From the sequence record MH550421: DNA of 64,000 bases; one strand, written 5' to 3'. The stretch comes from Enterobacteria phage T6. The notes beneath the pieces were generated by a model. The model saw only the letters and a program-made list of their open reading frames with translations, was not told the DNA's origin and searched no databases. Position 1 is the first letter of the stretch; each line of letters opens with the position of its first letter. Positions 354 through 28,478 of this stretch are shown in pieces. Made by a program: the position numbers and the translations under genes.

Positions 354-359
354 TTGATT

Positions 360-998
360 ATGGGGCTTCGGCCCCTATTCTCGAGGAAACAAGTGATTAT
401 TTCTAAGTTTGTTACAATAAAACCAAGAAATCATTCAAAAATGTGGTCGACAATTCTGGGATATAAAGTATCATATCATGATACAGTATCTGTTCCAATA
501 GAATTAATGCCAAAGAATAGTAATAAAATAGTTGACGCTAAATGTGATTTGTGTGGTACTAAATTTAGTAGAAGCATTCAGCTTTTAAATAGAACACCCA
601 CACATGCATGTAGAAAATGTAGCATTAAACAAGTTGCTATCAAAAATTCGGAAGTTCAATCTGGAATAAGCAGACCATGGCAAAGAGGTGATAAACATCC
701 TCGATGGACTGGTAAAAGAAAAGAGTTTGCATTATATGCTAGTAGAGTTCATTCTATAACTAAGTCAGCTAAAATAAGAAAAATCTGGTCAAAATGGCCG
801 AATGCTGATAAAATAGGAGTGTGTGGCGTAGAAGGTGCTTACCAACTCGATCATAAAGTATCTATCAAATATGGATTTGATAATTTAATTCCGCCGGAAA
901 TTATAGCAAGCGTAAAAAATTTAGAAATAATCACTTGGGAATCTAACCGAGAAAAGTCAAAAAGAAATAGCGTAGATCTTTGGGATTTACTAGAATGA
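360..998 (+). CDS. Putative HNH-family endonuclease, free-standing (possible homing endonuclease) between genes 18 and 19
   Basis: Track ORF 354..998 starts at TTG; ATG at 360 or about 441 possible. Cys motif CDLCG...CRKC, then QLDHKVS...N...N...WESNREK resembling an HNH catalytic core; position between two conserved structural genes. Confidence 0.5.
   Translation: MGLRPLFSRKQVIISKFVTIKPRNHSKMWSTILGYKVSYHDTVSVPIELMPKNSNKIVDAKCDLCGTKFSRSIQLLNRTPTHACRKCSIKQVAIKNSEVQSGISRPWQRGDKHPRWTGKRKEFALYASRVHSITKSAKIRKIWSKWPNADKIGVCGVEGAYQLDHKVSIKYGFDNLIPPEIIASVKNLEIITWESNREKSKRNSVDLWDLLE
362..376 (+). terminator. Stem-loop GGGGC-UUCG-GCCCC downstream of gene 18
   Basis: Perfect 5-bp GC stem with UUCG tetraloop directly after stop codon; weak U tract. 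Confidence 0.45.
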
Positions 999-10137: not shown

Positions 10138-10416
10138 TCAAAATGTAATTTCTAACCAATCACCATCACGCTGATCACTATTAACTTTAAAGCTGAATCC
10201 TTCTTTTCTCAGCCAATCACCAATTTCTTCAGTAATCAATTTATCACGAGCAGTACAATAATAACTAAAATATGTTTTACCTTGTTCAGCTGCTTTATTA
10301 GCAAGTTCCGAAAAATCTTTAATAAAACACTCTAGCTTAAACTGTTTGCTTTTAAGTGCTTTTTCGCGTAATTGATTAGCAAAAGATTCATTTTCATAAA
10401 GATCATACTGTTCCAT
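10138..10416 (-). CDS. Hypothetical protein (24.2-like)
   Basis: 92-aa ORF in conserved position between rnlB and hoc. Confidence 0.55.
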   Translation of the reverse strand: MEQYDLYENESFANQLREKALKSKQFKLECFIKDFSELANKAAEQGKTYFSYYCTARDKLITEEIGDWLRKEGFSFKVNSDQRDGDWLEITF

Positions 10417-10618
10417 TTTTCACCTTTTTATTAATATGTCTTTTTCTATAGACAACTTTTTCTCGAGTTTCAAATTTATTCTTAGCAGTCATAGCTCGAG
10501 CCCATAATACAGCCACTTCTTTTGCCTGTAAGTTTAATTCACGAGCAATTTCAATGAATGACTTTCCAGACTCATGAAGAGTAAACACCACAACCTCAGT
10601 TCTCATAATCAATCTCAT
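10403..10618 (-). CDS. Hypothetical protein (24.3-like)
   Basis: 71-aa ORF overlapping upstream gene by 14 nt; conserved position. Confidence 0.5.
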   Translation of the reverse strand: MRLIMRTEVVVFTLHESGKSFIEIARELNLQAKEVAVLWARAMTAKNKFETREKVVYRKRHINKKVKNGTV

Positions 10619-10680
10619 GTTATCGAGTTGGTGCCATTATATACATCATTTTCTGATTGTGTTTTACGTGCTTTCAAAAT

Positions 10681-10701
10681 GAAGAAAGGGGCCGAAGCCC
10701 C
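10681..10701 (-). terminator. Intrinsic terminator after hoc (minus strand)
   Basis: GGGGC-UUCG-GCCCC hairpin followed by UUUCUUC on minus-strand transcript. Confidence 0.6.
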
Positions 10702-10707
10702 TTATGA

Positions 10708-11839
10708 TTATGGATAGGTATAGATGATACCAGTTTCTAAAGCAGTTTTATGAATGATGTATCCATTACGTGATTCTTGAACATCAACTTCTGGATAGTC
10801 TTTCATCATCTTCTGAAGAGTGTAACGATGCAGGTAGTATTTACTATCTGGATCTTCAGTTTTCCAATCTTTACCTTCTTCAGTCATTTTTTGAATTTCA
10901 TCCATAACCCACCAACCGCACCAGATGTAAGCTGAAGTACGATGTGGAAGAGGATGAACATAAGGTAATTCACCTTCTGGTTCTGGAGCAACTTTATCAG
11001 TTACCTGAACTTGACCTTCTGCTGTAATAGTTTTGCTATCATAATCAGTAGCAGTAACGACGGCAGTCACTTCAATAGTTTGACTTCCAATAGATGAGGT
11101 ATCAACGGTATATACATTAGTTGACCCTTCTACAGGAGAAGAATCTTTCTTCCATGAATACGCAATTTGCGCTTCTTCTGGAGCATCAGTAACATTAGCA
11201 GTAAATGTAGCCGAAGCATCTTGTTGAACGTTAATAGAAGGAGGAGTCAATGTAACCTGTGGATTCATTGTCTTCTTATTAACCGTTAATGATACTTCAT
11301 TAGAAGTAACTTCCTTTTCATTGTAATTTTCTGCAGTTACTTGGGCTACGCATTTAATTCTTTTTAACTCCACTTGTAGTTGGAGTGTAATTGAATGTAG
11401 CGGAAGTTGCTTCGTCCACAGGAGAACCGTCAACGTACCACTGATATGTGGCGTTTGCGCCCGATGGCTGCGAAGCTAAAGTAGCGGTAAATTCAACAGC
11501 TGTTCCGATTACTCCAGCATCAGGGCTACCAGGAGTTACGGCTAAAGTAGTTGTTTGTGTCTTATTTTGAACTGTGATAGTTGTACTAATTTCAGCTGTT
11601 TCGGGACTACTATCGGCAACTTGATTTGTTGCAACTACTTTAATAGTCTTTTGACCGGCAGGTCCTTTTAGTACATAACTAAAAGTTGCTGACGTTTCTT
11701 CCTGTGGAACATCGTCTACAGTCCAAGCATAGGTAATAGTTCCACCTCCAGTTTCACCACTGGGTGTAGCAGTAAACTGCTTAGTTTCATCAATAACCCC
11801 TGTTGGTGTTTTAGGAGTTATATCAACTGTAAAAGCCAT
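10708..11839 (-). pseudogene. hoc: Outer capsid protein Hoc, reading frame interrupted by 1-nt insertion in a homopolymer run
   Basis: Track ORFs 11354..11839 and 10708..11433 are in different frames; joined at ...TTSGVK/RIKCVAQ... they give 376 aa, the T4 Hoc length; frameshift in T5 run near 11361-11365. Confidence 0.8.
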
Positions 11840-11848
11840 AAGTTATCC

Positions 11849-12529
11849 TTATTTTAATGTTACGAAAGAAGAATTACGTGTTTCACGAATTAGAACTGAT
11901 CCGTCGCGATTAATGTAATAAATTAAGCTAAATAAAGTTTGGTGTGCCGACGCATGTTCAAAACTAGTTGGTTGAGATTTCCAATCCGGAGTTTCAGCGA
12001 TCCATTGATAAATCCACCAAGGAACAGTGCAGAATCCTGGATTTTTTCCAATCAGCTGAAGATTCGGACTAAAGTTTTCCGGAAGAGTAAATACAGACGG
12101 CTTTTCAGATTCAATAATCTCAGCTACAGCCTGTTCGAATTTTTCTTCAACAAAAGGAGTATCTTCAATCAAAACTGAGGTATTTTCAGGAATTTTATCA
12201 GTTTCTACTACTTCAATTTTAATGTCAGATTTAATCGGAGAATCAATCAGAAGTGCTGCTTCTGGATTGACTTCTTCATCGTCATATTTTAATCCCTCTG
12301 CGGCATCAGCAGCATCAATTAAGTCTTTAATAGATAACCCATCAGTCTCTGGCATAGGTTCACTAGCGAGCTTCTGGAGGGCTTCTTCAATATCATTAAC
12401 GATATTATCAAAAGATTTATTCTTTTTGACCTTTATACCAAACTGTTCAGCATATTCAGCTAATTTAGCTTTAGCTTCTTTGTTATCATCAAGAGCCTTC
12501 AGCTCTGCAATATAATCTTTATCTATCAT
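11849..12529 (-). CDS. inh: Inhibitor of prohead protease (Inh)
   Basis: 226 aa, same length and position as T4 Inh. Confidence 0.8.
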   Translation of the reverse strand: MIDKDYIAELKALDDNKEAKAKLAEYAEQFGIKVKKNKSFDNIVNDIEEALQKLASEPMPETDGLSIKDLIDAADAAEGLKYDDEEVNPEAALLIDSPIKSDIKIEVVETDKIPENTSVLIEDTPFVEEKFEQAVAEIIESEKPSVFTLPENFSPNLQLIGKNPGFCTVPWWIYQWIAETPDWKSQPTSFEHASAHQTLFSLIYYINRDGSVLIRETRNSSFVTLK

Positions 12530-13198: not shown

Positions 13199-14706
13199 AT
13201 GGATATTAAAGTACATTTTCACGACTTCAGTCATGTACGCATCGATTGTGAAGAGAGCACGTTTCACGAATTAAGAGATTTCTTTTCGTTTGAGGCCGAT
13301 GGATATAGATTTAATCCTCGCTTCAGATGTGGCAACTGGGATGGACGAATCCGTCTTTTAGATTATAATCGACTTCTTCCATTCGGCTTAGTCGGGCAAA
13401 TTAAAAAGTTCTGTGATAACTTTGGCTATAAAGCCTGGATTGACCCACAAATTAACGAAAAAGAAGAATTATCAAGAAAAGATTTTGATGAATGGCTTTC
13501 TAAATTAGAAATCTATTCAGGAAATAAAAGAATTGAACCACACTGGTATCAAAAAGATGCAGTGTTCGAAGGATTAGTTAATCGTCGTAGAATTCTTAAT
13601 CTTCCAACATCTGCAGGTAAATCTTTAATTCAAGCTTTGCTTGCGCGGTATTATTTGGAAAATTATGAAGGTAAAATTCTTATCATTGTTCCAACAACTG
13701 CTCTGACAACTCAGATGGCTGATGACTTTGTTGACTATCGTTTATTCAGTCATGCAATGATAAAGAAAATCGGTGGCGGAGCATCAAAAGATGATAAATA
13801 TAAAAATGATGCACCAGTCGTTGTTGGTACATGGCAAACTGTAGTTAAACAACCGAAAGAATGGTTCTCACAGTTTGGAATGATGATGAATGATGAATGC
13901 CATCTTGCTACAGGAAAAAGTATTTCATCTATCATATCAGGATTAAATAATTGCATGTTTAAATTTGGTTTGTCTGGTTCATTACGTGATGGAAAAGCCA
14001 ATATCATGCAGTATGTTGGAATGTTTGGTGAAATATTTAAGCCAGTAACGACTTCTAAGTTAATGGAAGATGGACAAGTAACTGAGCTAAAAATTAATAG
14101 TATTTTTCTTCGCTATCCCGATGAGTTCACTACTAAATTAAAGGGAAAAACTTACCAAGAAGAAATAAAAATTATTACTGGGCTTAGTAAAAGAAATAAA
14201 TGGATCGCTAAATTAGCTATTAAGCTTGCGCAAAAAGATGAAAACGCTTTTGTCATGTTTAACATGTATCGCATGGTAAAGCTATTTTCGATTTAATTAA
14301 AAATGAATACGATAAAGTTTATTACGTATCAGGGGAAGTTGATACCGAAACCCGCAATATAATGAAAACCTTAGCTGAAAATGGTAAAGGAATAATTATA
14401 GTAGCTAGTTATGGTGTATTTTCTACTGGTATTTCAGTTAAAAATCTGCATCACGTTGTTTTAGCGCACGGTGTTAAATCAAAAATCATTGTATTACAAA
14501 CAATCGGTCGTGTATTACGTAAGCATGGTTCTAAAACAATCGCAACAGTCTGGGACCTCATAGATGACGCGGGCGTAGTTTCTAAATCAAAAACATCTTC
14601 TAAAAAATACTCGCATTTAAACTATCTTTTAAAACATGGAATTGATCGTATTCAGCGTTATGCTGATGAAAAGTTTAATTATGTGATGAAAGAGGTTAAA
14701 CTTTGA
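13199..14706 (+). pseudogene. uvsW: UvsW SF2 helicase, frame interrupted by 1-nt deletion
   Basis: Track ORFs 13199..14296 and 14362..14706 are in different frames; second frame is open from about 14263 and encodes the helicase C-terminal domain (VSGEVDTETR, QTIGRVLR); restoring one A in TTTAACATG near 14258-14263 gives a single ORF of about 502 aa. Confidence 0.8.
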
Positions 14707-15395
14707 ATTATAAATTAATATATGATAATTTAATTAATAGAGCCCAGAATCGGGCTCGCCTTAATGAATACACTGAAACACATCATATAATTCCTAGATG
14801 TATGGGTGGTACAAATGATAAGTGTAATTTAGTAGAACTAACGGCTGAAGAACATTTTATAGCCCATAAACTTTTAGCTAAAATTCATCCAAACCATTAC
14901 GGTATAATTAAAGCTGTTATATGTATGGGGATGAATTCAAATACTCATGAAAGACACGTCAATAAATCTTACGCATGGGAACGTCGTAAAATGGCAGAAC
15001 TTCAATCCGGCGAAGGTAATCCATTTTACGGAAAACACCATACGGAAGAACATAAACAATATATGTCAAAACTCATGAAAAGTCGTCCAATTACATGGGG
15101 AAATAAAATTAGTAAAACTAAAAGAATGAACCCAACGAAATGGACTGAAGAAGCTAAAAGATTACATTCAATCAATCAATCGGGTAAAAATAACGGCATG
15201 TATGGAAGGAAACATTCCGCTAAATCTATTCAGAAAATTAAAGATAACATGCCAGATAATTCAGGAGCTAATAACCCAGCTGCTAAACCTATAGAAGTAA
15301 ATGGTGTTAAGTATAAATGTATGAAAGATGCTTCTAAAGCTACTGGATTATCAATGTACAAACTAAGAATACTTAGAAAAACAGTTAATTTATAA
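14703..15395 (+). CDS. HNH homing endonuclease, Mob family (paralog of MobE)
   Basis: 230 aa; N-terminus MNYKLIYDNLINRAQ...ETHHIIPRCMGG...NLVELT..EHFIAH near-colinear with the mobE product at 42588..43229; TTG start overlapping uvsW stop. Confidence 0.75.
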   Translation: MNYKLIYDNLINRAQNRARLNEYTETHHIIPRCMGGTNDKCNLVELTAEEHFIAHKLLAKIHPNHYGIIKAVICMGMNSNTHERHVNKSYAWERRKMAELQSGEGNPFYGKHHTEEHKQYMSKLMKSRPITWGNKISKTKRMNPTKWTEEAKRLHSINQSGKNNGMYGRKHSAKSIQKIKDNMPDNSGANNPAAKPIEVNGVKYKCMKDASKATGLSMYKLRILRKTVNL

Positions 15396-24240: not shown

Positions 24241-24301
24241 TTTGTGTTCCTCATGTTATGTCAGTAAGACTATTATAACACAACATAAGGAACTTGTAAA
24301 C
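24241..24301 (-). promoter_or_regulatory. Candidate early promoter (GTTTACA-N17-TATAAT) with leader for the alt.-3-like gene
   Basis: Minus strand GTTTACAAGTTCCTTATGTTGTGTTATAATAGTCTTACTGACATAACATGAGGAACACAAAATG; matches T4 early promoter consensus. Confidence 0.55.
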
Positions 24302-26358
24302 TACATTTTGAACTTTTTAGACATTCCGTTGATGTTAACCAAAGAAGCTAAGATTTGAGAAACTTCGTTTTCCTCTTCTTTTGATTCTTCTACAAGGAAT
24401 TGATTAAATCCAGTCATTGGACGAACTTCACCAGTTTCCATTAGATGGTCTCCATCATATACTGATTCTTCTAATTGTTCAGAAGGAGGAACGATTGTAC
24501 CTTCGATTAGATACTTGTTATAAGCAGTTTCTTTCATAAAGTACGTACTTACTTTATTAATCTTCAGTAAAATTCCACGCGGTAGAATAACTTCAGCTTC
24601 TGATGGAAATCCTGTTAAATGACCTGGAACGATAACTTTGATTCGCTCAGCTCCTTTAATTACCATACCCACGCTAGTTTCAGCATCTTCATTAGCATAT
24701 GTAGAATGACTACCCATATGCATCAAATCTTCTGCATCAACAGAACCTTCTCCTTCGCCAGAAAATACTTCACCGGAATCATCTAGAGCCATATAGTTTT
24801 TACCATGCTCACCGAAGATATTCGGTTTAAGCGATGTAGATACGAAGTTCTTGAAATAGAACATTTTGTTTTCAATGTTATGACGCAAAGTTTTAAAGGT
24901 AACTTCTTGTCCACGATAAAGCGTAGTTCCTGGAGGAAGAACTGAACCTTTAGCGAATGCAGAATCCAACGTCTCGATGTGCTTAATGGCACGTTCCATA
25001 TATTCTTCACGGGTAGAATCTGGTTTACCCAAAAGGAACGAGTTCATTTCAACATATGAATCTGCACAATAATCTTCAATTACATCAGATTCAGCTTGAG
25101 TTAATCCTTTTGGAGTTACTTCAGTACTTGCATATTCATACGCCTGAGCAGCAGATTCATTAATCAATTTATAAATGCCATTCATTACAAATTGAATAAT
25201 AGCTGTCTTTTCATCTGGCGTGGCTTTAGAACCTTTAACTAAATCATTAATAATTTTCTTAATAACATCAAAGCTATTAGAAATATTAATGTCAGCAAGA
25301 TCGCTTAAAATTTTATCAGTTTTATAATCAAAGAATTCTTTATTCTTTAAATATTCTTGAGAACCTTGATATGTTATATCGCTCTGCAGCTTGATAGATG
25401 GATCACGTAAACGCGCATGGGCCAATGCGATATGATTTCGGAAGTTTTCTAGTTCATAATCGCTAGATTTAAAACGAGAAGCACTCCTCATACCACCGAT
25501 AGCTCCTTTGCCGAAGTTTGAACCAATCTGGATAACGCCAGAGTTCATCGGACCTTCTGCTTTATATACCGGAACTTTAGATTCAAACTCTTGATATTTC
25601 TTGGCAGCGAAGCTATCACCCTGAAGTGAAGCATCAACAGTAGAATATTGAGCTTGTGCTGCTAATCGACGACTAATTTTAGTTTTCTGAATAACAGCTT
25701 GGTCCGTGCGCTTATCATTTTCTAAAGCAATAGAAGCAGCAACAGCGACAGCTTTAGGAACAGCATTACCTGTTTTAACGTCTACATAAACATCACCAAC
25801 CTTTGATTCAACTTTTGTGAATAACTCAGTTGAAATAGGAGGTACACCTGGAATGTCTTCTAAATTGGCATTTTTACGGTAAACCATAATATATGCGTAC
25901 TTTTTATCATAATCCCAGATTTCCTTTAAAAGAACATATCGACCTGCTCCTTTAATACGTACTAAACGGTCAGCAATAACTTGCATTTGACGAGCAGCGC
26001 CATTTGTTTTACTTTTTAGTACGCGGAATAAGCATGCGTCGATTTTATACTGTTTCATTGTTTGAAGAGCAGTATCAAAAACAGCATTAATGACGCCAAT
26101 TGGATTTCCACCCAAGTTTTTAAGCTTGACTAACGATAATTTCTCGTTGACACCTATCATTACGATATGCATCATTTTATCGCCTGGCTTAACGTTTTTA
26201 TTTGTATCACCGCCAGAGGTGTATGTACAAAATCTAAATCCAGGAAGCACACTTTCTTCGCCGGCTTGAATAGCAAAAATTTGTGGTATTTTATGCTTAG
26301 GATTTAAGTTAACAACCGGCGCCGAAGCGCCGTCAAATAATTCTGTAATAAGTTCCAT
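24301..26358 (-). CDS. Alt-family mono-ADP-ribosyltransferase paralog
   Basis: 685 aa; N-terminal about 230 aa colinear with the adjacent Alt (MELITELFD..., KIDAC..., RYVLLKE.WDYDKKYAYI); C-terminal R/S/E-x-E motifs (YRGQ, FVSTSL, SEAEVILPRG). Confidence 0.75.
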   Translation of the reverse strand: MELITELFDGASAPVVNLNPKHKIPQIFAIQAGEESVLPGFRFCTYTSGGDTNKNVKPGDKMMHIVMIGVNEKLSLVKLKNLGGNPIGVINAVFDTALQTMKQYKIDACLFRVLKSKTNGAARQMQVIADRLVRIKGAGRYVLLKEIWDYDKKYAYIMVYRKNANLEDIPGVPPISTELFTKVESKVGDVYVDVKTGNAVPKAVAVAASIALENDKRTDQAVIQKTKISRRLAAQAQYSTVDASLQGDSFAAKKYQEFESKVPVYKAEGPMNSGVIQIGSNFGKGAIGGMRSASRFKSSDYELENFRNHIALAHARLRDPSIKLQSDITYQGSQEYLKNKEFFDYKTDKILSDLADINISNSFDVIKKIINDLVKGSKATPDEKTAIIQFVMNGIYKLINESAAQAYEYASTEVTPKGLTQAESDVIEDYCADSYVEMNSFLLGKPDSTREEYMERAIKHIETLDSAFAKGSVLPPGTTLYRGQEVTFKTLRHNIENKMFYFKNFVSTSLKPNIFGEHGKNYMALDDSGEVFSGEGEGSVDAEDLMHMGSHSTYANEDAETSVGMVIKGAERIKVIVPGHLTGFPSEAEVILPRGILLKINKVSTYFMKETAYNKYLIEGTIVPPSEQLEESVYDGDHLMETGEVRPMTGFNQFLVEESKEEENEVSQILASLVNINGMSKKFKM

Positions 26359-26361
26359 GAT

Positions 26362-28455
26362 TTATCCTTGAACGAACTTGTAAGGCATGTTTGTAATATC
26401 TATGCAAGACGCAATAATTCCAAGAGATGATTCTACTTTCTGTTTAACATTTGATGAAACAAATGATGCAAAGTCAACTCTGTCTTCTATTTCAATATCA
26501 CCTGTCATTGCAACTACTTCACCGGTTTCCATTAAACAGTCTCCGTCATAGATTACCGATTCGGTGAGTTCTTCTGTGGTCATAACTTCAGCTTGAATGA
26601 GTTTTGTATTGTTAGATGTTGTTCCATCATTATTAGAAGCATCAGTTATTTTATTAACTTTGACCATTAATCCGCGCGGTAGAATAACTTCAGCTTCTGT
26701 TGCTATTCCGAGACTTCCTGGATATACAACATTAACTTTATGAGCTCCATCAATTGCCCATCCTATTTGAACTTTAACGTATTCAGGATTTTCTTTATAC
26801 GCTCTTATTTCGTTTGGATTAATAGTTATTCCTTCTTCATTTTTATCAACTGTTAATTCATTGCGAGCTTCTGGTTCTAAAAGACCAATACCAGCATGTG
26901 TAATTCCAAAACGTCCAAAAATGATAGGAGTTAAAGAAGTAGATACAAAATTTCTGAAATAGAATACTTTATTTTTAACTAGCGCTTCGTATATAGGAGC
27001 AGTCATACTTTGAGCACGATAAACTGTAATGCCTTCCGGTATGCGGTCACCATTTTCAAAAGCTGAATCTAAATTATTTATAGCAGATTCAATTTCTTTT
27101 TCACTCATTACATCATATCGTTCTGGATTGTAACGACCTAAAAGAAGATTATTAATGTCTGTATATCCTGAACCACAATACTCTCTAATACCGCGCTTTT
27201 GCGATGGAGTATATTTAGAACCATCACGGGCAATAGTAATATCAATCATTGGGCCTGCACCAATTCCAGAAAAACTATAAATCATTCGTTTGAGGAATTT
27301 AGTTTTTGCTGCATTCCAGGCATTTTTAGTTATTTCTCCCCAGACTTCATCTGGTTGCCCTTTACGAGTTTTATTATGTTTATCAAGCCAATTATCTTTA
27401 TATTCTTCAAAGAATTGATTGACAGCTGCTGCGTATTTCTCTAAACATTTTATTGAAGTAGTTGGTTCATTTTTGATCGCATTAAGAATTACATCTTTAA
27501 TTTTTTCGGAAACTTCATTAACCTCACTTTTTGAAAAGAATTTATAGTCATAGTGAAGTTCATTCGCAGTTCCTTCGGCAATAATTTTTGCTGCCTTAGT
27601 TTTAGAAGCTAATGAATTAATTCCAAGCTTCATTTCTTCTGCTTCGGGAATTAAAGGAGCAGTAGCAGGTTTATTGAAATTAGCTGCGGTAGATTCATAC
27701 TTCTGGAATAATTCACTTTCAAATCTAGAAGATTCCAATGACTGACTTTGTGCAATTGCTCTACGGGAAATTTTAACTTTAACGATTACAGCTTGGTCAG
27801 AACGTTTATCATTTTCTTGTGCAATAGATGCTGCAATTGCCTCATTTTTAGTTACTTGAGCTCCAGTATCTTTATTGATATAAACATCACCGACCTTCGA
27901 TTCAACCTTAGTAAAGAGCTCGGTACTAATTTCCGGAACTCCTGGAATGTCTTCTAGTGATACATTTTTGCGATGTATAAGAATATATGCATACTTTTTA
28001 TCATAATCCCAGAGTTCCTTAAGAAGGACGTATCTTCCACCTGAACGACTACGGATAAGTCTATCAGCAATAACTTGAATTTGTCGAGCTTGGCCAGCAG
28101 TTTTAGACTTAAGAATACGAAGCATGCAGGCATCAATTTTATACTGACGCATTGTTTGCATTGCAACAGTAAAAACTGAATTGATATAATTAATTGGGCT
28201 TGGTCCAAGACCTTTTAATTTAGCAATTGAACCTTTAGCAGTTAATGTAAAAGGAACAATATGCATCATTTTATCGCCCATTTTTAAATCGCGATTAGTA
28301 TCACCTCCGGATGTATAGGTACATAAACGAAAGCCTGGTTGTTCAATTGCATCATCAACATGAACTGAAAAAATTTGCGGTATTTTCTTCTTTGGATTTA
28401 AGTTTGTAATTGGAAGAGTAGTATCTTCGTCAAATAATTCTGTAATGAGTTCCAT
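26362..28455 (-). CDS. alt: Alt ADP-ribosyltransferase (packaged internal head protein)
   Basis: 697 aa from second Met; MELITELFDEDTTLPITNLNPKKKIPQIF...; ART motifs YRAQ, FVSTSL, TEAEVILPRG; directly downstream of gene 30. Confidence 0.85.
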   Translation of the reverse strand: MELITELFDEDTTLPITNLNPKKKIPQIFSVHVDDAIEQPGFRLCTYTSGGDTNRDLKMGDKMMHIVPFTLTAKGSIAKLKGLGPSPINYINSVFTVAMQTMRQYKIDACMLRILKSKTAGQARQIQVIADRLIRSRSGGRYVLLKELWDYDKKYAYILIHRKNVSLEDIPGVPEISTELFTKVESKVGDVYINKDTGAQVTKNEAIAASIAQENDKRSDQAVIVKVKISRRAIAQSQSLESSRFESELFQKYESTAANFNKPATAPLIPEAEEMKLGINSLASKTKAAKIIAEGTANELHYDYKFFSKSEVNEVSEKIKDVILNAIKNEPTTSIKCLEKYAAAVNQFFEEYKDNWLDKHNKTRKGQPDEVWGEITKNAWNAAKTKFLKRMIYSFSGIGAGPMIDITIARDGSKYTPSQKRGIREYCGSGYTDINNLLLGRYNPERYDVMSEKEIESAINNLDSAFENGDRIPEGITVYRAQSMTAPIYEALVKNKVFYFRNFVSTSLTPIIFGRFGITHAGIGLLEPEARNELTVDKNEEGITINPNEIRAYKENPEYVKVQIGWAIDGAHKVNVVYPGSLGIATEAEVILPRGLMVKVNKITDASNNDGTTSNNTKLIQAEVMTTEELTESVIYDGDCLMETGEVVAMTGDIEIEDRVDFASFVSSNVKQKVESSLGIIASCIDITNMPYKFVQG

Positions 28456-28478
28456 CATATCCTCTCTAGTGTTTATTC

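Follow-up and report, generated by a model that had tools for sequence, protein, structure and literature searches.

A +1 frameshift in hoc of phage T6 at a tract of recurrent breakage, and the probable absence of Hoc from the T6 virion

The window analyzed here is a stretch of 64,000 nucleotides of Enterobacteria phage T6 DNA (record MH550421), in which hoc lies between inh and gene 24.3 as it does in T4, in the synteny inh-hoc-24.3-24.2-rnlB (Table 1). The region 10600-11950 is 100% identical to the T6 genome AP018814.1 and its RefSeq copy NC_054907.1, and after these come other Tequatrovirus phages, none of them above about 94%. Two overlapping minus-strand reading frames occupy the locus, and the coordinates and lengths given to them by a first-pass annotation of the window agree exactly with the ORF listing. 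GenBank (BBF63597/BBF63596) and RefSeq (YP_010067326/YP_010067325) already annotate two CDSs here, both members of the RefSeq pair being named "Hoc-like head decoration"; a published statement that T6 hoc is split or null was sought in the literature and none was found, the two CDSs being visible in the public records. The first frame, ORF1, is preceded by a good Shine-Dalgarno sequence (AAGGAU, -6.0 kcal/mol) and specifies Ig-like domain 1 with part of Ig-like/PKD domain 2, without the capsid-binding domain. The second, ORF2, is started in the public records at GTG 11373 to give 221 aa, and the 3' part of hoc that it contains encodes the end of Ig domain 2, followed by Ig domain 3 and by the capsid-binding domain, defined as T4 residues 281-376 (PMC10385173), with the motif PLPHRTSAYIWCGWWVMDE kept.

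Table 1. Positions of the hoc locus, its parts and neighbors, and other features of the T6 window
Feature	Position	Strand	Detail
hoc locus	10708..11839	-	1132 nt = 1131 + 1
inh	11849-12529		adjoins hoc on one side
gene 24.3	10403-10618		adjoins hoc on the other side
ORF1	11354..11839	-	ATG start, 161 aa, ends ...TTSGVKKN-stop
ORF1 make-up	11839-11363		hoc codons 1-159 at these positions, then out-of-frame AAG AAT, then TAA
ORF2	10708..11433	-	241 aa counted from TTG
hoc 3' part, +1 frame	10708..11361	-	codons 160-376 plus stop
TTAAAAA tract with net +1 base	11361..11367	-	frame switch between Val158 and Arg160
SNP, window versus SRR24085887	10934	-	C in window, T in SRR24085887; Ser302Leu
intrinsic-terminator-like hairpin	10676..10703	-	AAGGGGCTTCGGCCCCTT then T-rich tail, directly after hoc stop codon
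alignment of T4 uvsW (NC_000866)	13199-14703	+	two frames
alt-like ORF	24301-26358	-	685 aa, full length
alt-like ORF	26362-28458	-	698 aa, full length
NUMOD3 ORF	14703-15395	+	230 aa
ORF between gp18 and gp19	354-998	+	214 aa, TTG start

The identification of the locus as hoc and the +1 relation of its two frames, both proposed at first pass, hold up in alignment to T4 and in matches to the family PHROG 1149 ("Hoc-like head decoration"), of which ORF1 matches profile positions 745-900 (E 1.9e-42) and the 3' half the consecutive part, 964-1150 (E 5.1e-77). A tblastn alignment of T4 Hoc changes frame exactly at the T6 tract, and T4 residues 158-376 share 89.5% identity with the T6 3' part. Deletion of one base restores a single ORF of the predicted 376 aa, with the junction ...TTSGVK/RIKCVAQ..., and the comparison with an intact T-even hoc that had been called for shows the repaired protein to align with T4 Hoc without gaps, 323 of 376 residues and 980 of 1131 nucleotides being identical, a colinearity that must be reckoned far beyond chance. 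Consistent with the N-terminal Ig-like/PKD string of Hoc, the repaired protein has a Pfam PKD match at residues 100-171 (26.7 bits, the cut-off being 23.5), with Ig_3 and I-set matches at 193-277 below their cut-offs; since the PKD domain spans residues 100-171, the break at residue 160 cuts Ig-like domain 2. A single uninterrupted frame joining the Ig domains to the capsid-binding domain is missing in T6 owing to the +1 frameshift, and the locus is to be classed, from its reading frames, as a hoc pseudogene or null allele and not as a functional member of the Hoc family.

At the break the T6 coding strand reads ...AGT GGA GTT AAA AAG AAT TAA, with an A5 run at 11365-11361, and intact T4 hoc reads GGA GTA AAA AGA ATT, thus with the same A5 run. 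The frames do switch at the run of five T on the plus strand (11361-11365), as the first-pass annotation had placed it, but its further supposition that the run itself is abnormal, an A4 grown to A5, fails because intact T4 hoc also has A5. For the same reason the extra base in the TTAAAAAG tract is not uniquely assignable, and "A4 became A5" is no more parsimonious than two other accounts of the net +1, the three one-event derivations being a T added to the T4 type, a G added to the A7 type, or an A added to an unobserved GTT-A4-G. The allele GTT-AAAA-G, which removal of one A would imply as the ancestor, was found in 0 of 50,697 phage records, so that extension of the homopolymer by one base cannot be demonstrated; 269 of these records have the T4-type GT-AAAAA-G between identical flanks, and the T6-allele 30-mer is confined to the two T6 records among them. 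By these comparisons the inserted base need not be an A of the run. T6 hoc is moreover a mosaic: the 120 nt upstream of the tract show 1 mismatch to phage F1, the gene from nt 508 on is 100% identical to Yersinia phage PST, the last 624 nt being identical to PST hoc, and F1 and PST both carry GTT-A7-TT at the tract. Out-of-register recombination within the tract would be as plausible an origin of the lesion as replication slippage.

The predicted product of ORF1 is an N-terminal fragment without the capsid-binding domain, and since it stops at residue 161, short of that domain, it would be unable to attach to the capsid. A close counterpart is the T4 mutant HAP1, in which C496T creates an ochre codon at position 166 and Hoc is absent from the capsid by ELISA (PMC10580926); since T4 Hoc stopped at codon 166 is not found on the capsid, T6 virions probably lack Hoc too. 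T6 resembles HAP1 and the classical hoc amber mutants of T4 in that the same gene is cut near the same residue (160 in T6, 166 in HAP1) and in that the phage is viable, Hoc being dispensable; it differs in that the lesion is a frameshift rather than a nonsense mutation, and is found in a circulating "wild-type" T6 rather than in a selected mutant. No report bearing on the composition of the T6 capsid or on T6 Hoc, and no protein-level data on T6 capsids, were found in the literature searched.

The 3' part of the gene probably goes untranslated. In one alternative, which is quite unlikely, termination-reinitiation at GTG 11373 or at a nearby codon would let this part be translated on its own, into a shorter capsid-decorating Hoc that would consist of Ig domain 3 and the capsid-binding domain, together with a free N-terminal Ig protein. 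In its favor, ORF2 is open throughout and shows no decay, its GTG sits 17 nt upstream of the ORF1 stop, within reach of reinitiation, and natural short Hoc variants of 164-292 aa have fewer Ig domains and the same C-terminal domain (PMC10385173). However, no Shine-Dalgarno sequence was found before any ATG, GTG or TTG of the ORF2 frame; the value at the annotated GTG is +2.6 kcal/mol, where hoc, inh and rnlB have about -6 at their genuine starts, and the sole SD-like element in this frame (GUGGAG) precedes an ATT codon. The lack of capsid Hoc in HAP1, which is cut six codons downstream in the same context, also speaks against a reinitiated product, as does the fact that the arrangement is conserved in no relative. 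In addition, a second T6 lineage, that of sequencing run SRR24085887, carries Ser302Leu. Residue 302 is Ser or Thr in every homolog examined, down to about 40% identity, and lies between the gp23-contacting His295 and Tyr304/Trp306 (PMC10385173); the change fits relaxed constraint, as a single SNP. That the 3' part in AP018814 has no private change relative to PST over the 624 identical nucleotides points to a young lesion, although continued use of the 3' part would equally predict its perfect preservation. Separate translation of ORF2 is on these grounds judged unlikely, and low-level reinitiation or ribosomal slippage at T6 hoc may occur.

Between a genuine hoc-null allele and a homopolymer sequencing error, the two choices offered at first pass, the evidence favors the former. 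An error of sequencing or assembly, such that T6 hoc is really intact and the extra base an artifact of AP018814, would be in keeping with a lesion at a short homopolymer, with the single T6 genome record (AP018814, with its RefSeq copy NC_054907) in the phage collection, and with the G4 to G5 frameshift in PST hoc, which could itself be a platform error. It is nevertheless quite unlikely. The independent run SRR24085887, separately assembled, yields a Logan contig of 1360 nt that encodes the 161-aa product exactly, runs colinear with the window and has the same TTAAAAAG tract; a neighboring contig is identical to T6 over inh and segE, only one SNP (Table 1) separates run and window over the 2.46 kb spanned by these two adjacent contigs, and the run also contains exact T6 gp38. 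A second Logan run, SRR12606221, contains T6 gp38, and exact T6 Inh or Hoc fragments were sought in it and none found, so that this run says nothing on hoc. Neither the Ser302 nor the Leu302 form of the exact repaired 376-aa Hoc is present in a collection of about 15 billion proteins, which does contain both halves, and a run of A5 beside T2 is not of the classic error-prone length.

When 43 T4 CDSs are compared with T6 over 34 kb, hoc is the sole gene whose frame change indicates a T6 lesion; 41 others show no frame change, and the remaining exception is uvsW, whose T4 sequence (587 aa) spans two frames when aligned to T6. The called T6 UvsW is 502 aa long and has intact helicase domains, the T4 record flags sequence discrepancies in its uvsW section, and the T4 uvsW reference contains a known sequencing error; this frame change looks like a discrepancy of the T4 reference rather than a lesion in T6. 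Since the same tract is present in SRR24085887, the repaired protein is absent and no other T6 frameshift occurs among the T4 genes compared, the T6 hoc frameshift is almost certainly a real lesion; AP018814 and SRR24085887 may both go back to a single laboratory stock, and hoc could be intact in T6 from other stocks.

Other parts of the window also differ in gene content from T4. The two full-length alt-like ORFs (Table 1) are in tandem, and the N-terminus of the downstream alt-like ORF matches T4 alt.-1 and alt.-2, which the T4 record takes to be left over from an old alt duplication; T6 thus seems to retain intact the alt paralog that is degenerate in T4. The ORF with a NUMOD3 match is homing-endonuclease-like and lies between uvsW and a uvsW.1-like ORF; it has no T4 counterpart in that interval and is present in PST. 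The gap between gp18 and gp19 is about 750 nt, as compared to about 117 nt in T4, and the ORF within it is possibly a further mobile endonuclease gene.

Breakage of hoc at codons 158-160 is not confined to T6, and the tract is, in the alleles found, a recurrent indel hotspot and the preferred breakpoint of Tequatrovirus hoc; besides T6, at least eight lineages of phage show +1 or -1 changes in it. In F1, where the tract is A7, hoc is intact with 376 aa, and the near-identical sibling FN, sequenced on Illumina MiSeq (bioRxiv 10.1101/2022.07.04.498734), has A8 and a first CDS of 161 aa; A6 is found in CE1, with a first CDS of 163 aa, and likewise in 172859UKE1 and PM105. When the N-terminal fragment of T6 was used as a query, at least nine protein clusters at 90% identity were found to end ...SGVKK followed by N-stop, NQVC..., LSV-stop or SSV-stop, including ACG-C40, UPWr_E2 and several Logan/ENA/metagenome assemblies; this search gave short proteins only and no full-length Hoc, and it measures recurrence, not frequency. 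BASEL phage FriedrichMiescher has a 240-aa protein that its annotators, who recognized the split, named "capsid whiskers protein Hoc part 2", the break being at or just upstream of Gly157, a few codons from the T6 site.

The hoc pseudogene of T2 is like that of T6 in synteny and in having an indel at the identical tract (A6, against A7 in intact relatives). It differs in that three frameshifting indels of -11, -1 and -2 bp are present (NC_054931, 5374-6600), namely an 11-bp deletion near codon 58, the change at the tract and the loss of 2 bp from the capsid-binding domain, and is thus older or more decayed than T6 hoc, in which a single +1 interrupts an otherwise pristine gene. The A6 allele is found in seven T2 records and in SV76 (8 records, LC348380 and NC_054931 being one genome). 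Ishii and Yanagida, in the 1970s, reportedly compared the T-even shells and found T2 to be without Hoc. Among the sequences examined of the classical T-even phages, hoc is intact only in T4. PST hoc (KF208315, 3191-4610) has a five-domain architecture and its G4 to G5 frameshift at about codon 15, and variants of 164-341 aa that have lost domains in frame are common as well; hoc is thus a plastic gene that is often lost.

Variation in the number of domains and of genes is seen as well. Extra Ig-like domains, each ending ...SGVK(R/T/K)IKCVAQ, are found in hoc of IMGVR_UViG_3300010279_000005 (1200 and 1488) and of locus L036, and domains that end in this motif would repeat the T/A tract inside one gene and so provide a substrate for unequal recombination. 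In IMGVR_UViG_2706795356_000001 a second capsid-binding motif of Hoc type, PLDHRDSGYIWMGWWVMDE, lies on the opposite strand near hoc, which suggests that this phage carries two Hoc-like genes, as has been reported for Muldoon and PG7.

Independent alleles at the tract, +1 in FN and -1 in CE1, 172859UKE1, PM105 and T2, together with those of ACG-C40, UPWr_E2 and the metagenome/Logan clusters, could also be seen as states of a reversible contingency locus, in which a hypermutable repeat toggles Hoc display and T6 is in the off state. Contingency loci, homopolymers of at least 6 bases, have been reported in T2, T4 and T6 in a preprint (Gomez, Barrick & Waters, bioRxiv 10.1101/2025.10.21.683753), and the likeness to hoc lies in the homopolymer +1/-1 frameshifts in T-even genes and in the A7 alleles of F1/PST-type phages, which satisfy this length; the difference is that the T6 tract, A5 beside T2, is below the 6-base threshold and that hoc is absent from the main text of the preprint. 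The two further indels of T2 point to irreversible decay and not to switching. A scan of JGI metagenomes gave 3 matches, all of them intact and T4-type, too few for a natural frequency of the off allele, and neither the T6 allele nor variable-gap patterns were found in IMG/VR, where there are only about four close Tequatrovirus hoc loci, too small a number to serve as a census. For T6 itself a reversible switch is very unlikely, and it is a doubtful conjecture that the Tequatrovirus tract, A7 in many lineages, would serve at the population level as an on/off switch of the immunogenic, mucus-binding Hoc fiber, with T6 and T2 fixed in the off state.

Least credible of all is the restoration of full-length Hoc by slippage in transcription or in translation. 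For efficient transcriptional slippage by RNA polymerase a five-A run is far too short. Programmed +1 ribosomal frameshifting, with tRNA-Lys moving between AAA codons on A-AAA-A, has in its favor that +1 is the shift required, that tRNA-Lys could re-pair perfectly in the P site and that an SD-like GGAG stands 2 nt upstream of the AAA codon, loosely as in prfB. Against it, the A site (the next codon in the 0 frame) holds AAG (Lys), which is no stop and no slow, hungry codon either, the configuration occurs in T6 only, the 269 relatives with the same flanks being in frame, and relatives broken at the tract go both +1 and -1, unlike the outcome of one programmed mechanism. The tract was rejected as a prfB-type site for its ordinary AAG and for an arrangement unconserved in the homologs.

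T6 hoc is best described, then, as an ordinary loss-of-function allele of a dispensable gene. In the mechanism we propose the sequenced T6 lineage carries a genuine +1 frameshift at codons 158-160 of hoc, in the TTAAAAA tract; translation begun at the normal hoc start would end two codons past the frameshift, and the virions would most likely be without the Hoc fibers that occupy the centers of the gp23 hexamers on T4, a loss that would be tolerated because Hoc is dispensable. The lesion most likely arose at this short tract of recurrent indels when replication slipped or when diverged hoc alleles recombined out of register. We regard this account as a whole as highly likely to be correct.

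T6 is a standard model in work on phage defense and in reporter-phage engineering. A 2026 reporter-phage study relied on the RefSeq annotation alone in choosing KMB99_gp220, the 3' half of the gene, as a "Hoc-like" locus for integration (PMC13532311), its authors being apparently unaware that this is the dead half of a pseudogene. If T6, like T2, is without Hoc, comparisons with T4 would be confounded for surface charge, aggregation, mucus adherence, immunogenicity and capsid display. The short tract at which hoc breaks repeatedly is, in addition, a concrete site at which to ask whether capsid decoration is phase-variable in nature.
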